Assembly: GCA_951406725.2 (NCBI GenBank)
Contig: OX597818.1
Span: 50,592,001-50,656,000, forward strand
Reading direction: 5' to 3'
From: Octopus vulgaris
Taxonomy: Eukaryota
DNA: 64,000 nucleotides
The notes beneath the pieces were generated by a model. That model did not search any database, was not told the DNA's origin, and saw nothing but the letters and a program-made list of their open reading frames with translations. A program made the translations under genes and the position numbers. Shown here one piece after another: positions 4,770 through 62,837 of this stretch. How positions within the stretch are numbered: position 1 is the first letter of the stretch; each line of letters begins with the position of its first letter.

Positions 4770-5495
4770 AGGCGCAGGAGTGGCTGTGTGGTAAGTAGCT
4801 TGCTAACCAACCACACGGTTGCGGGTTCAGTCCTACTGCGTGGCATCTTGGGCAAGTGTCTTCTGCTATAGCCCCGGGCCGACCAATGCCTTGTGAGTGG
4901 CTGTGTGGTAAGTAGCTTGCTAACCAACCACATGGTTCCGGGTTCAGTCCCACTGCGTGGCATCTTGGGCAAGTGTCTTCTGCTATAGCCCCGGGCCGAC
5001 CAATGCCTTGTGAGTGGCTGTGTGGTAAGTAGCTTGCTAACCAACCACACGGTTGCGGGTTCAGTCCCACTGCGTGGCATCTTGGGCAAGTGTCTTCTGC
5101 TATAGCCCCGGGCCGACCAATGCCTTGTGAGTGATTGTGTGGTAAGTAGCTTGCTAACCAACCACACGGTTGCGGGTTCAGTCCCACTGCGTGGCATCTT
5201 GGGCAAGTGTCTTCTGCTATAGCCCAGGGCCGACCAATGCCTTGTGAGTGGATTTGGTAGACGGAAACTGAAAGAAGCCTGTCGTATATATATGTATATA
5301 TATGTATATCTGTGTGTGTTTGTGTGTCTGTGTTTGTCCCCCCTAGCATTGCTTGACAACCGATGCTGGTGTGTTTAGGTCCCCGTCACTTAGCGGTTCG
5401 GCAAAAAGAGACCGATAGAATAAGTACTAAAAGGTGGTGCTCCAGCATGGCCGCAGTCAAATGACTGAAACAAATAAATAAAAAAAAAAAAGAGT
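4770..5495 (+). mobile_element. SINE family A with 4x tandem 117-bp head
   Basis: Unit starts GAGTG at 4778, 4895, 5012 and 5129; the normal body resumes at 5246. Confidence 0.92.
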
Positions 5496-7014: not shown

Positions 7015-7019
<5 letters not shown>

Positions 7020-7498
7020 GAAAGAATGGAGTTGAACGACGATTTAACAAAATTCCTTTATTCTCGACATATGTTTCGAAGGCTGCATATTCCTAATTTC
7101 GAAGGAATAAGGGGTGCATTATGCCACCTTCTCATCAGGAAATTTCATCTTAGATCGCTATGGGCTCCGTGTGGGCAGTCATCTAAGAGCTTTTGTTCAT
7201 CTTGATGCTGACATAAGTTCCTTGTTTTTCCTGATGAGAAGGCGGCATAATGCACCCCTTATTCCTTCGAAATTAGGAATATGCAGCCTTCGAAACATAT
7301 GTCGAGAATAAAGGAATTTTGTTAAATCGTCGTTCAACTCCATTCTTTCATTTATTTGTATTAAAAAAACACACACATTTCCACACGAAAGCACGTGATC
7401 TCTGCCCTTGGCATGTAGCTTCAACCGTGTTTTTCTGTCGTGAATTTTACCCAGGTATCGGTTAACCGAATTATCCATACTAAGATAATTCATTCAAC

Positions 7499-7502
<4 letters not shown>
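7015..7502. mobile_element. Fold-back Penelope-type pLTR insert with intact hammerhead
   Basis: Near-perfect arms ~7015-7143 / 7228-7355; flanked by (TA)n on both sides. Confidence 0.85.
7226..7308 (+). ncRNA. Minimal type I hammerhead ribozyme motif
   Basis: TTTTC-CTGATGA-GAAGGC...GCCTTC-GAAAC-ATAT-GTC-GAGAA followed by AATAAA; mirrored on the minus strand in the left arm. Confidence 0.8.
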
Positions 7503-24878: not shown

Positions 24879-25107
24879 GTGTGTGTGTATGTGTGTTTTT
24901 GTGTGTCTGTGTTTGTCCCCCTAGCATTGCTTGACAACCGATGCTGGTGTGTTTACGTCCCCGTCACTTAGCGGTTCGGCTAAAGAGACCGATAGAATAA
25001 GTACTGGGCTTACAAAGAATAAGTCCCGGGGTCGATTTGCTCGACTAAAGGCGGTGCTCCAGCATGGCCGCAGTCAAATGACTGAAACAAGTAAAAGAGT
25101 TAAGGAG
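24793..25107 (+). mobile_element. SINE family A, 5'-truncated
   Basis: Match from GACCAATGCCTTGTGAG to tail. Confidence 0.9.
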
Positions 25108-25564
25108 TATATATATTATATATATATGTATATAGATAGATAGATACATACATACATACCTACCTACCTACATACATACATACATACATACATACATGCA
25201 TACATACATGCATACATACATAGGCATGTGTGTGTATTCATAAGAAGAGTTAACAACTCATACCAACTCGTGTAAAACAATGTGTTACTGGTCATTTGGA
25301 ACATAAGATCGGATTAATGAGCCTTCACTTTGCACCGTTCGTCATCAACCGATATCAATTCAAGCTTGAATACGACTATTGAATGTAAATAAAAGCGTAC
25401 AAACCCGTGCTATTGAGAGAAATAGTAGTGGGGAAACAGAAAGACCGTCTTATAATGCAATGCTTTTGTATTAGCTATTATAAATATATGCACATATGTT
25501 AATGTCAGAACAATGCAATAAAACGTAAACATATCTAAAGAATATTTTTGTGTTTGTGGGAGTG

Positions 25565-25718
<154 letters not shown>

Positions 25719-25724
25719 TGTATG

Positions 25725-25792
<68 letters not shown>

Positions 25793-25800
<8 letters not shown>

Positions 25801-27816
25801 CAACAATTGAGGGTAAAATTAATTAATTATTAATCAATTTCACCAAGTATTCAGTATGTAAAGGGACCATTTTAGGCGAATTCAAAATATTACATTATAT
25901 ATAAGGGCTTAGTAAAATAAATTACTTTGCCACATACTGAACTCATTAGAAATAGCAGCTAAAGAAATTTCTTCAGCTATTTCTAATACTTAAAGAAGAT
26001 CTCTCTCAGATAGTGTTTGCCTAAACCAACTCACAAAGGTATGGGGGAAAAAACACTAAAAAATCAAGTGCAAAGGTTATTTGAGAACGTACGTTTCTAG
26101 ATTAGTCAATTCGACATTTCTTTCGTCAGCTCAGAATTCCTTGAATCGTATTTGGGAACACTGAAAGTTGGGAGCATACCCTTTCGGCTTCTCATCACCT
26201 CTAGAATTCTGCTCGAACTAAAAGTGCTATCAAATCCGAATATGCAAGCGAAGAATTTCTGCTCTCCCCTTTCCACCAGCGTGGGTTAAAATTGACAAAC
26301 ACCATGTATTAACGGTGAAAACTGCAGCATTTAACAGAGAGAGATGAATTATAATTTCAACAATTGAGGGTAAAATTAATTAATTATTAATCAATTTCAC
26401 CAAGTATTCAGTATGTAAAGGGACCATTTTAGGCGAATTCAAAATATTACATTATATATAAGGGCTTAGTAAAATAAATTACTTTGCCACATACTGAACT
26501 CATTAGAAATAGCAGCTAAAGAAATTTCTTCAGCTATTTCTAATACTTAAAGAAGATCTCTCTCAGATAGCGTCTGCCTAAACCAACTCACAAAGGTATG
26601 GGGGAAAAAAACATTAAAAAATCAAGTGCAAAGGTTATTTGAGAACGTACGTTTCTAGATTAGTCAATTCGACATTTCTTTCGTCAGCTCAGAATTCCTT
26701 GAATCGTATTTGGGAACACTGAAAGTTGGGAGCATACCCTTTCGGCTTCTCATCACCTCTAGAATTCTGCTCGAACTAAAAGTGCTATCAAATCCGAATA
26801 TGCAAGCGAAGAATTTCTGCTCTCCCCTTTCCACCAGCGTGGGTTAAAATTGACAAACACCATGTGAAAACCGCAGCATTTAACAGAGAGAGATGAATTA
26901 TAATTTCAACAATTGAGGGTAAAATTAATTAATTATTAATCAATTTCACCAAGTATTCAGTATGTAAAGGGACCATTTTAGGCGAATTCAAAATATTACA
27001 TTATATATAAGGGCTTAGTAAAATAAATTACTTTGCCACATACTGAACTCATTAGAAATAGCAGCTAAAGAAATTTCTTCAGCTATTTCTAATACTTAAA
27101 GAAGATCTCTCTCAGATAGTGTTTGCCTAAACCAACTCACAAAGGTATGGGGGAAAAACATTAAAAAATCAAGTGCAAAGGTTATTTGAGAACGTACGTT
27201 TCTAGATTAGTCAATTCGACATTTCTTTCGTCAGCTCAGAATTCCTTGAATCGTATTTGGGAACACTGAAAGTTGGGAGCATACCCTTTCGGCTTCTCAT
27301 CACCTCTAGAATTCTGCGCGAACTAAAAGTGCTATCAAATCCGAATATGCAAGCGAATTGTTGAAATTATAATTCATCTCTCTCTGTTAAATGCTGCGGT
27401 TTTCACCGTTAATACATGGTGTTTGTCAATTTTAACCCACGCTGGTGGAAAGGGGAGAGCAGAAATTATTCGCTTGCATATTCGGATTTGATAGCACTTT
27501 TAGTTCGAGCAGAATTCTAGAGGTGATGAGAAGCCGAAAGGGTATGCACCCAACTTTCAGTGTTCCCAAATACGATTCAAGGAATTCTGAGCTGACGAAA
27601 GAAATGTCGAATTGACTAATCTAGAAACGTACGTTCTCAAATAACCTTTGCACTTGATTTTTTAATGTTTTTTCCCCATACCTTTGTGAGTTGGTTTAGG
27701 CAAACACTATCTGAGAGAGATCTTCTTTAAGTATTAGAAATAGCTGAAGAAATTTCTTTAGCTGCTATTTCTAATGAGTTCAGTATGTGGCAAAGTAATT
27801 TATTTTACTAAGCCCT

Positions 27817-27826
<10 letters not shown>
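25793..27826. mobile_element. Retrozyme/Penelope-type array: three tandem ~550-bp units plus one inverted unit, each with a hammerhead
   Basis: Units start at 25793, 26350 and 26899 (third truncated at 27357); inverted copy 27356-27826; flanked by (TA)n. Confidence 0.88.
27588..27639 (+). ncRNA. Minimal type I hammerhead motif (minus-strand copies at 26082-26133, 26640-26691, 27187-27238)
   Basis: TGAG-CTGACGA-aAGAaatGTCgaattGACtaaTCTa-GAAAC-GTAC-GTT-CTCA. Confidence 0.75.
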
Positions 27827-27858
<32 letters not shown>

Positions 27859-28386
27859 TCAGGATGAATACTTGATAAATGTAAGCACCTGTATATGCCA
27901 GCTAGTAGCAGAGGTGAGAGTATATATTTATCTCATTTGATACATATATATTTATATATATATATATACATGTGCGTGTGTGTGTGTGTGCGTGTGTGTG
28001 TGTGTGTGTGTGTTCTTGTGATTCTTTTTGCAAGCATTTGTGCGCTAAAGCGAATTATTTATGGCTTTGATAACGATGCAGTGACCGTGACCTTTATCGT
28101 CCTACGAGACCAGTGAGATCGCTATGGCTGATGTTCAGCTTGACCATCATTAAGGATGGAAGTAAGTATGACTGTGTAGTTAAATATGTCGTCGGTAACT
28201 AGATGGCTTTGGTTTCAATGATAATGTGCTGCACATCGGGAAATTGGTTGTGAGATCGATCGATAAGTCGATAGTTAACAGGATCAAAAAATGTGCCCCT
28301 TTTGTTAATAAAAAGGACATGCGCCATTTATTAGCATGTTACGGGACTGAGCATAGATCCAGAGAGAGGGAGAGATAGAGAGCTAG

Positions 28387-28435
<49 letters not shown>

Positions 28436-28778
28436 CAGTGGGAGAAGGAGAAGAGAGAAGAGGAAAGAGAGTGTGTGTGTGTATATAAGAGAGAAACTGT
28501 GAAATATGGAGGAGTTCAAATATGACAGAAGCTACCTCTCGCGAGATGTTTGATGGTAAACGAAGAAATGTTGACAAGACTTGTGGCTTTGTTTGTGTGA
28601 ATCGACCAGAGGTTTTTCATGATTGGCGTATATGCGTATTGGCACCGAGACTAATAAAGTGTCAAAACTAGGTGTGGGTTAGAGTTTAACTAAGTATGAC
28701 AAATGCGAAGTCAGTTCAACGAAGATCGAATAGTAAACGTAGAAATTTTCTCTGCAGATATCATTCCTACAGAGCTAA

Positions 28779-42988: not shown

Positions 42989-43625
42989 CTGATTGCTTCG
43001 ATTCTGCATGGTCAATAATTCCTTTCTACCAATTTGTATTGTTTCATGTTTTACACCTCTTACAGTCATCTTTTTCTCTGGATTTCACTTTTTTTGTGGA
43101 CTCTGCAATATTTATTGTCCACTCTTCAACGTTCATTTTCTTATGGTTTTTGACAAATACTATCATCTGAATCATCAGCCCCAAACAATAAATTTATAGC
43201 CCAGCCGAAATTGCGAGGATGATCCGGTTCTTGACTGGGGATAAAAAGCTTCTGATTGCTTCGATTCTGCATGGTCAATAATTCCTTTCTACCAATTTGT
43301 ATTGTTTCATGTTTGACACCTCTTTCAGTCATCCTTTTCTCTGGATTTCACTTTTTTTGTGGACTCTTTGCAATATTTCTTGTCCACTCTTCAACCTTCA
43401 TTTTCTTATGGTTTTTGACAAATACTATCATCGGAATCATCAGCCCCAAGCAATACATTTATAGCCCAGCCGAAATTGCGAGGATGATCCGGTTCTTGAC
43501 TGAGGATAAAAAGCTTCGAATGACCCGTCTTTGTTTTTTTTTTTTGTATCGTCTATCTCGATGTCTTGTTGTCCCTTTTTGTATCACCTAGTTGCCCGGA
43601 TGTTTTGCGTTCTTGTCTCATTTTG

Positions 43626-59156: not shown

Positions 59157-59714
59157 AAGAGAGTGAGCAAGAGATACATATATACATACATACATATATA
59201 CACACACACTCACTCACATATATTAACGCAGGAGATTGCAAAAGAAATTTGGCATTATTAATTCACTATTACACATATTTCTTTTGTTAATAGGGGTTAC
59301 AAAAATTGCACATGTAGGAGAAAAATGTAAGACACCTCCTGTTAGAAATTCTTCGGACAGAGAATTAAATTATACTATTATACAACTGGCAAACGAAACA
59401 TGAATAAAGGTGAATAAATGATACCAAAAATTTCTCTTTTCCGATCTCTTGTTTGATATGTGATTTCTCCGCAAAAAATATTTTCCAGAATACTCCACCC
59501 TTATGCCTGCCTCACACACATAAAACACCAACATAGGATTTTGGAGCAATGGAATAAGCAGAAGTGCTTCAAGAGCACAGAGCTAGGATTTCAGCCCAAT
59601 CGACGTAATGTGGATACGTGTATGCGTGCGTATGTATTTGAATGTGAATGTGTATGTATGTGCATGCGCGCACGAGAGTGTATATAAGTGTGTGTATGTA
59701 TACAGATATATATA

Positions 59715-60037
59715 TATAACCAAGAAAAAAGCAACAAGAATGGATTAGTAGTTTAGTACAATTGTTTCATACCAAGAACAATTTTATTTAAAGGTGAAAG
59801 TATTGCAGCAAATACAAATAACATTTGTATTTGCTGCAATACTTGCAGCTTTAAATAAAATTGTTCTTGGTATGAAACAATTGTACTAAACTACTAATCC
59901 ATTCTTGTTGCTTTTTTCTTGGTTATAATCACCCACATTATTTTATGGTTAATACCATAAACAATTCTGGTGCATCTAAGTTAAGTACCGCATTCATGTG
60001 AATTCATTTGAATTCACTTGAATCTTAATTGTTTTTG

Positions 60038-60040
<3 letters not shown>
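59715..60040. mobile_element. Fold-back insert; 105-bp hairpin arms with 3-nt loop
   Basis: 59715-59819 / 59823-59927; only the GAAAC-AATT-GTA half of a hammerhead; (TA)n flanks. Confidence 0.8.
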
Positions 60041-60152: not shown

Positions 60153-61117
60153 ATTATGTGAAATAGAAAGATGTATAATCTTGTAGTAGATTAATCAAAA
60201 GTTTAACCGATACCTTAGTAGCAAAAATCACAGCAGTAAACAGCACGGTTGGAGGTACAACCATATGGTGTTGCAACCGTGCGTTGGTGCGGATAATTGA
60301 AATTAAAACATTATTGGTGAATTGAAGAAATGGAGCTGAACGCAGATTGAACAGAAATCGTTTTATTTCATTCTACACGTGTTTCGAAAGGCACAAATTA
60401 CCAAAATCCGATTGAATAATGGGACCATATTGTGTCTTTCTCTTCAGGAAGAAAATAGGAAATCCGTTGGAAAAACAAAAACAGAACAGAGGCGGAGCAA
60501 AAACAAATCGAACTATGCTCCTAAGAGCTCATGGCGAAACTGTTTATCAGTGTATGTTGAGAACCGGTGGCTGAAGAATTTAACGGGTCAGGCATCGGTC
60601 AATCATGTGGGTGAGGGTGTGTGGGTGTTCTTTGTGACCGAGAATAAAGTTCTGACTATTTAAGGAATATTGGATGTTTTATAAGGGGCGAGAAAAAATC
60701 TACTTAGAGACGTGTGTGTGTGTATACTGTTCTATATATGTGTGTGTTGGCGTAGGGGTAGAAAACATTTTTTGTGTACGTGTGTGCGTTTGATCGTTCG
60801 GCTGTCAGTGGCTACTGCCGCGAGAACCGTTGGGTGGCAGAAAAAAAAATATATATATATTATGTTTTATGTGTGTGTGTGTTCATCTAAGCCTGCCTTG
60901 TCAAGGAAACCCCCCGCTGTGAAAAAACGAAGCCCCGTTTGTCTTACAGGAGTAATTCCCCTTGCAGTGGTTAATCGTAGATATCTGAAGAGAAAGACAC
61001 AATATGGTCCCATTATTCAATCGGATTTTGGTAATTTGTGCCTTTCGAAACACGTGTAGAATGAAATAAAACGATTTCTGTTCAATCTGCGTTCAGCTCC
61101 ATTTCTTCAATTCACCA

Positions 61118-61119
<2 letters not shown>
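60153..61119. mobile_element. Fold-back Penelope-type insert with intact hammerheads
   Basis: Arms 60313-60447 / 60985-61119; CTGAAGA-GAAAG.CACAA...TTGTG.CTTTC-GAAAC-ACGT-GTA-GAA, then AATAAA. Confidence 0.85.
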
Positions 61120-61152
<33 letters not shown>

Positions 61153-62404: not shown

Positions 62405-62776
62405 ATGTGTGTGTGTATATATATATATATGTATAAAAATACAAACTGGGACAAGAACGCAAAACATTTAGGAGACGATACAAAAAACACGGACGGGACA
62501 TTCGAAGCCTTCAATCTTCAGTCAAGAACCGGATCATCCTCGCAATTTCGGCCGATTATATATATATATATATATATATATTTATTTTATAGAAGGAGCT
62601 TCTACAGGACTAGAACTGTTTCATTCAAATGAAATCATCAGGAAGCTTCCTGATGATTTCATTTGAATGAAACAGTTCTAGTCCTGTAGAAGCTCCTTCT
62701 ATAAAATAAATTAATTTACTCTGCCATGTATTGAGTACCTTATTTACTGTGGTTAACCCCGACTCAACCCGGGACC

Positions 62777-62837
<61 letters not shown>

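Follow-up and report, generated by a model that had tools for sequence, protein, structure and literature searches.

A dispersed family of ORF-less, hammerhead-bearing repeats in Octopus vulgaris with Penelope-like insertion ends, probably a new non-LTR retrozyme family

Animal non-LTR retrozymes – tandem repeats carrying hammerhead ribozymes – have been proposed to spread by way of a circular RNA template (PMC4209133; PMC7229834). Both the enzyme that moves them and the circular nature of its template have so far been matters of proposal (PMC7229834). A link to Penelope elements was suggested in PMC7229834 and is argued in a recent preprint (10.64898/2026.07.22.740005) from co-occurrence and pLTR similarity; that study covers 35 genomes with no mollusc among them, and reports that 1 of 9 Xenopus retrozyme dimers cleaved. 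Neither cephalopods nor octopus are mentioned in the available parts of PMC7229834 and of the preprint.

Penelope-like insertions show partial tandems, an inverted arm, a 'tail' at one end, and a preference for (TA)n (PMC8557442). A Penelope protein studied in vitro uses two internal start sites, from which the 'tail' results, and cuts and extends both strands at AT-rich DNA; it used unprocessed RNA, and the ribozyme was dispensable for insertion (PMC11167929).

Here, we analyse a 64,000-nucleotide stretch of Octopus vulgaris DNA (contig OX597818.1; hereafter the window, whose coordinates are used throughout), containing a block that is one recent insertion of a large, dispersed, ORF-less and hammerhead-bearing family. 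The family has all the features of non-LTR retrozymes that are readable at the sequence level, and is probably a new member of that class. Its insertions end at two fixed sites, A and B, which inverted copies mostly pair as A+B, at (TA)n; this is the Penelope-like 'tail' signature.

Architecture of the block

The block (25793-27834) comprises two full units and a partial unit on the minus strand, followed by an inverted arm on the plus strand, with (TA)n around it. Its features are as follows:

25599..25796, no strand: left target tract, (TA)n/(TATG)n
25793..26349, minus strand: unit 1, 557 bp, whose 3' end (~25793-25800) forms the insertion's distal 'A' end
25793..25896, minus strand: 'tail' of unit 1, from site B (~454-464) to site A (~550-557), ~94 nt
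25793..25998, minus strand: conserved 3' module of unit 1, with a hairpin, a long-range helix enclosing site B, and an AU-rich terminal hairpin before site A
26073..26142, minus strand: type I hammerhead motif 1, CUGA at 26129; predicted cut after GUU, between 26086 and 26085
26350..26898, minus strand: unit 2, 549 bp, with a precise head-to-tail junction
26631..26700, minus strand: type I hammerhead motif 2, CUGA at 26687
26899..27357, minus strand: partial unit 3, 459 bp, 5'-truncated; unit positions 98-557, 99.3% identity
27178..27247, minus strand: type I hammerhead motif 3, CUGA at 27234
27356..27834, plus strand: inverted arm, 479 bp; unit positions 542-557 and then 1-463, 98.5%; stops at the proximal 'B' site
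27579..27648, plus strand: type I hammerhead motif 4, CUGA at 27592, within the inverted arm
27817..27855, no strand: right target tract, (TA)n, overlapping the B end

Unit 2 is 97.5% identical to unit 1, with 4 mismatches and 2 gaps that include an 8-bp deletion. Unit 3 and the inverted arm share 2 bases at the inversion breakpoint, and the arm begins ~16 bases ahead of the unit junction and therefore spans it. An earlier note on this DNA, made from its letters, had described most of this arrangement: alignment and six-frame translation bear out its units of 557 and 549 bp with a partial third and no ORF, its inverted copy including the tail-to-head junction, and its placement of the block in (TA)n, with TA/TATG tracts at 25599-25796 and 27817-27855. 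Its 'three tandem units' are indeed near-identical and in tandem, and amount to two full units and one partial one (459 bp); the right end lies nearer 27834, blurred by TA.

Both full units have stops in all six frames, no stop-to-stop frame of at least 130 aa overlaps the block, and no tRNA gene was found in window 25000-28500. As in retrozymes, the unit has no coding capacity and no LTR architecture in the ORF, linked-locus and tRNA-gene scans, and a GC of 34.6% with a unit of 557 nt agrees with the low GC (<45-50%) and few-hundred-nucleotide units of the non-LTR kind.

Several other repeats lie in the window. At 7017-7502, two arms in inverted orientation, each with a hammerhead and together bounded by TA tracts, are 72-79% like the ends of the Hydra-like Penelope loci L335, L336 and L238 and are, to judge by their sequence, a truncated Penelope-type insertion of another family. 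An inverted hammerhead-bearing insertion between TA tracts at 60155-61120 is 81-87% like L339 and L340 over ~830 bases, with a Hydra-like end directly to its left at ~59700-60040, and a short palindromic hammerhead insertion at 62586-62779 is 92-95% like the Hydra-like pLTR in L305, L346 and L347. There are also tandem arrays at 4778-5251 (117-bp unit, 4.1 copies, 97%) and 42989-43517 (265-bp unit, 2 copies, 95%).

Hammerhead, RNA fold and dispersal of the family

The motif UGAG-CUGACGA-stem II-GAAAC-GUAC-GUU-CUCA is present four times in the block with identical cores, and its predicted cut falls after unit position 264. Each tandem unit bears a type I hammerhead motif, as non-LTR retrozymes do; the one motif per unit that had been noticed on the minus strand corresponds to three occurrences there, and a fourth is on the plus strand in the inverted arm. 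Rfam gives no hammerhead match in the window at the gathering score, in unit 1 at E up to 10, or in loci L189, L170 and L273 at E up to 1. It is blind to these hammerhead forms, an autonomous element's hammerhead included, and the call therefore rests on the core motif and covariation. In an alignment of 20 hammerheads 96% of cells pair (29-47% in slid controls), and 21 cells are changed on both sides compared with a shuffled mean of 6.9, a count reached by 0 of 500 shuffles. These double changes are located in helix II and distal helix I, neither of which was fixed by the search pattern. Just 5 pairs covary, which 30 of 500 shuffles reach, and independent covariation events are fewer than the counts because the aligned sequences are related.

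The triplet of the ribozyme in the window is GUU, and its helix II opens with an A-A apposition, with no G10.1-C11.1 pair directly after A9; canonical hammerheads keep a G-C at the base of this helix (PMC4209133). It may therefore be weak, and the activity of the predicted ribozyme in self-cleavage is uncertain. Folded alone, the 101-nt ribozyme does no better than shuffles (z +1.4). Stem III is palindromic: two copies together form a 10-bp duplex of -11.6 kcal/mol, a single copy has no fold of its own, and such stems are reported to need dimers (PMC4209133; PMC7229834). The dimeric cleavage expected in the earlier note thus fits the window, where stem III pairs solely between copies, and is not needed family-wide because stem III of several subfamilies is able to fold within one copy.

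Across 20 whole units, 90% of cells agree with the unit fold predicted for the window (39-46% in slid controls), and double changes number 105 as compared with 39.5 after shuffling. Relative to 40 shuffles per family, the ribozyme strand of three families folds as a circle with z of -5.6, -5.9 and -8.2, and the opposite strand lies near the shuffle mean. The predicted monomer is highly self-paired (62-64%) with conserved pairing, as described for retrozymes. The 3' module is the most conserved part across families, and has a similar fold in three of them, with its pairing kept and z about -7 relative to 200 shuffles; we infer that it may be the recognition element for a reverse transcriptase. 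Covariation of the hammerhead and of the whole unit, together with the circular folding energy, points to selection on the RNA shape of the unit.

The genome searched (2.8 Gb in 227 contigs) holds many copies. A DNA search in which 40 of 1,807 candidates were scored gave at least 143 matches of 92-100% identity on many contigs; the exact 50-base ribozyme core occurs 84 times and a loose hammerhead pattern 2,748 times, with 0 occurrences of the reversed control in both cases. The earlier note had named a lack of other genomic copies as grounds for giving up its reading, and these counts remove it. The copies lie on nearly all large contigs and vary in length and breakpoints, as dispersed and mobile retrozymes do, and arrays reach 11-13 units. 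The covarying fold, the junction and the unit size are all retained among subfamilies of 64-99% identity. Forty subfamily loci, the first listed matches on contig C1, are 71-99% like the window unit, have units of ~545-568 nt with the same junction and the same ends, and are most conserved in the 3' third.

Three distant families have the 3' module in common with that of the window: Y, with a 561-nt unit, 64-67% identity and a GUC hammerhead; X, with a unit of ~650 nt and a GUAC/GUC hammerhead (by eye in L170); and Z, with mostly short copies. The loci of X and Z (L161-L180, L201-L220) are mainly short fold-back copies inverting at the hairpin that opens the 3' module. A palindromic insertion at L179:1700-2110, which also matches L180, has a further hammerhead with a palindromic stem III and a GUA triplet. 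Mean divergence between loci of the young family is 1.3%. At the synonymous rate of 0.0036 per million years quoted in PMC13282606 the family would be, as a rough estimate, 1-2 million years old.

Insertion ends, candidate partners and template

The ends of the young family were analysed in 61 of 68 fetched loci, with 7 overlapping or duplicated ones dropped. Forty are inverted with both ends resolved, 20 have a single orientation, and 1 extends past the sequence retrieved. Outer ends correspond to 3' ends and fall at either of two fixed sites, A (~550-557) or B (~454-464), ~94 nt apart. Inverted loci are A+B in 36 of 40 and have one atypical end in the other 4; A+A or B+B was seen in 0 of 40. 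Among older subfamilies (38 loci), A+B accounts for 23 of 26 inverted blocks, the exceptions being L104, L106 and L120; in two of these, another piece lies across a gap. (TA)4 is present within 40 nt of 92 of 93 typed 3' ends relative to a background of 8.4%, and in the older subfamilies 3 of 52 outer ends are without TA. Target-site duplications are unreadable because the ends lie in (TA)n. These insertions share with Penelope-like ones an inverted 5'-truncated arm, a one-sided tail and an AT-rich or (TA)n target (92/93 ends), and the likeness to tandem plus inverted Penelope insertions drawn in the earlier note is upheld by the A+B pairing, the TA target and the tail.

The 5' ends are spread evenly around the unit, with 4 of 97 within 255-275 (around the cut site) where 3.7 are expected, a comparison in which single arms stopping at the cut site are under-sampled because loci were selected by a full-unit match or an intact core. 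The copies, among which the earlier note had suggested looking for circularly permuted start points, are not permuted at their 3' ends, which keep to two fixed sites; the spread around the unit concerns the 5' ends alone.

The genome also contains intact Hydra-like Penelope elements, assigned by resemblance to published Hydra proteins, with ORFs of 727-1091 aa, a predicted hammerhead in the pLTR and a TA target. Their two ends are ~115 nt apart, and all 8 loci at which both could be typed are A+B. Loci L251-L350 include many young Hydra-like families with intact ORFs, some of which have long Asn-rich inserts, and with tails of ~70-150 nt; named matches to the protein come from Octopus and Argonauta, and its relatives are labelled host genes in public sources. 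An abundant Neptune-like element (L061-L063) has a 781-aa RT/GIY-YIG frame overlapped by an upstream ORF of 330-380 aa. This frame has no start codon at its beginning, with a frameshift being possible, and the element has a tail of ~30 nt and tandem repeats in its 3' UTR, with no hammerhead found in these loci. As candidate partners the Neptune-like 781-aa, other GIY-YIG and Hydra-like families were set aside, having no similarity to the unit.

One alternative is that the units are 5'-truncated pLTR ends of an autonomous Penelope-like element outside the sample. Tandem and inverted copies, a tail and a TA target are the anatomy of Penelope insertions (PMC8557442), and three other blocks in the window are such ends or near them. 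Yet precise tail-to-head junctions carry site A into position 1 of the same unit 1,632 times. The search pattern for exceptions covers exact A-sites with two non-T letters after them; all 9 such places enter TA-rich tracts and continue into no other sequence. Arrays of up to 11-13 units also weigh against it. No Penelope ORF is joined to the unit in 77 loci of 7-9.5 kb, and no RT + GIY-YIG ORF was found linked to the repeat in this incomplete sampling. Among 183 Penelope loci no pLTR is similar to the unit (tail alignments have z below 2), and the unit matches within them are self-contained nested insertions, which were checked base by base in L038 and L153, in part in L265 and L350, and by coordinates only in L346 and L347. 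Five unit motifs had 0, 0, 1 (unrelated context), 0 and 0 matches in the Craig 2021 supplement, where line breaks may hide some. The Penelope sampling took the best 150 of 6,136, 17,071, 2,353 and 2,613 candidates, with Naiad and Poseidon types not queried directly, and because it is partial a partner element may remain unseen. With no ORF-linked copy in the loci examined and no sequence-similar autonomous partner in the 183 Penelope loci, the units are not plain pLTRs, an outcome that the earlier note had named as refuting its reading, and we regard the pLTR explanation as very improbable. A local satellite or an assembly artefact is hardly credible: some long arrays are near-identical (as in L360), and the block and arrays are read from the assembly, but copies of differing lengths and breakpoints are found on nearly all large contigs, the units in the window carry private differences, and a contig of run X15 (kind not recorded) bridges the junction.

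The nature of the template is less readily read. The earlier note suggested reverse transcription around a circular RNA. The arms run through the ribozyme site and the unit junction for up to 11-13 units; tandem read-through RNA gives the identical arrangement, and a junction-crossing arm by itself is no evidence for a circle. Within a locus the units diverge by 0.56%, or by 0.60% when inverted arms are compared, and between loci by 1.3%. Variants common to other loci are fixed across the locus in 87 of 118 cases and polymorphic within it in 31, and 12 private variants are fixed across the locus with 77 confined to some units. Most loci thus carry a single haplotype, as expected if one monomer is copied repeatedly, for instance from a circle; uncleaved multimeric RNA with homogenisation at the DNA level is also compatible with this. 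Mixed haplotypes, clear in L003 and L025 and seen as 2-3 shared variable columns in the arrays L118, L361 and L362, are obtainable from one monomer circle only with later conversion or template switching. Long arrays are near-identical or differ mainly by singletons, and in the near-identical array of L360 the 176 singleton columns probably come from its truncated end piece. Variants in the long arrays show no clear periodicity of the kind that a dimer or trimer circle would leave. Contigs of runs X1, X3 and X7 (RNA origin guessed) and of X15 cover 25-30 of 30 bins, and are uninformative on transcription or circles.

A second explanation keeps the same element and Penelope-type machinery with a linear, uncleaved, multimeric read-through RNA as template, the arrays being homogenised and re-lengthened by DNA duplication or template jumps, and the hammerhead being kept for another use such as flank trimming or protein-assisted late cleavage. 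The Penelope protein acted mostly on unprocessed RNA in vitro (PMC11167929), the mixed-haplotype arrays L003 and L025 and the weak-looking ribozyme of the window subfamily favour it, and it would equally produce evenly spread 5' ends. What it accommodates poorly are the 87 shared and 12 private variants that every unit of a locus carries, in either arm, for which a repeated monomer-to-multimer step would be needed; in addition, no two-sided inversion junction recurs (by eye) among the 40 inverted loci, although transcription and copying of whole loci might produce such repeats, and compensatory changes preserve the hammerhead fold in relatives as distant as 64% identity. We consider a linear template possible, and rather unlikely.

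Our preferred reading, to which we assign a probability of roughly 0.6, is that an ORF-less retrozyme is copied into TA microsatellites by a Penelope-like reverse transcriptase with a GIY-YIG nuclease, likely from a unit-length circle. The anatomy it draws on comprises two fixed 3' ends, A+B pairing, a TA target, random 5' ends, a precise junction, and mostly one haplotype per locus. A tandem locus would give rise to a read-through transcript, from which the hammerheads – here acting as dimers through the palindromic stem III – are predicted to release ~550-nt monomers that would be ligated into circles. The ends suggest that a Penelope protein would then bind the folded 3' module and nick both strands of (TA)n, with reverse transcription starting internally at site A on one strand and at site B on the other. 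Synthesis of each cDNA would proceed around the template to a random extent, after which the 5' ends of the two would be joined head to head. Counting against a circle are the mixed haplotypes of L003 and L025, the dispensability of the ribozyme for insertion in vitro (PMC11167929), and the cleavage of only 1 of 9 Xenopus dimers in the preprint. More tentatively, the family could represent a lineage of viroid-like circles, recognised through their shape, and not through shared sequence, by a Penelope (probably Hydra-like) enzyme and copied in rolling-circle fashion from two structure-defined starts. Such a long-lived, independently evolving circle lineage would, if real, document directly in the genome the life cycle proposed for retrozymes, and would imply that the pLTR, tandem and tail anatomy of Penelope elements in general stems from circular templates.

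Comparison with retrozymes and Penelope elements

The value of the family lies in footprint evidence for Penelope enzymes moving retrozymes, since dozens of its young insertions bear the Penelope signature, and the genome also has intact candidate partners that show it. The family provides a compact test system, with a 557-nt RNA with mapped start sites and intact Penelope ORFs, as well as natural ribozyme variants (GUU, GUA and GUC triplets; dimer-only and monomer-competent forms of stem III), and enlarges the hammerhead content of an octopus-type genome by thousands of unannotated, predicted motifs. The literature searched, which was mostly without subscription papers, gave no account of a retrozyme from a cephalopod. 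The earlier note called the family possibly undescribed, and it is probably new; with Repbase, Dfam and the consensus library of PMC13282606 lying outside the comparison, an existing catalogue entry under a different name is possible.

As far as the available parts of PMC7229834 and the preprint (10.64898/2026.07.22.740005) extend, the octopus family resembles animal non-LTR retrozymes in its tandem ORF-less units with one type I hammerhead each, low GC, predicted self-paired fold, and coexistence with Penelope-like elements, and its palindromic tetraloop stem III recalls that of axolotl HHR_Amex1. The unit of 545-650 nt compares with 170-400 nt in PMC7229834 and 51-972 in the preprint. It departs from animal retrozymes in its strict (TA)n target, within which a target-site duplication is not readable, and in its two fixed 3' ends with inverted A+B insertions; the available parts of PMC7229834 do not report inverted insertions, nor those of the preprint tail or initiation sites. 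No pLTR homolog of the octopus family was found, whereas 24 of 57 Xenopus families have one according to the preprint.

The partial tandems, inverted 5'-truncated arm, one-sided tail, (TA)n preference, and hammerhead upstream of the start sites are shared with endonuclease-bearing Penelope-like elements, especially those of the Hydra clade (PMC8557442), and the PAc mechanism (PMC11167929). Unlike these elements, the octopus family has no ORF and no significant sequence similarity to their ends. Its tail of ~94 nt compares with 30-40 bp in those studies and ~70-150 nt in the Hydra-like families of this genome, and site B lies ~200 nt after the ribozyme rather than ~35-60 nt as in these families. 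Chlamys elements such as MRC1 (PMC8557442) are likewise non-autonomous and Penelope-type with multicopy head-to-tail insertions, but resemble autonomous partners at their 3' end, where the octopus family has no similar partner found; their clade is reported to be mostly without canonical hammerheads, whereas the octopus family keeps its own. The kind of element is thus already known, and what the octopus family probably adds is a large new family and a set of insertion footprints tying a retrozyme to the Penelope mechanism.
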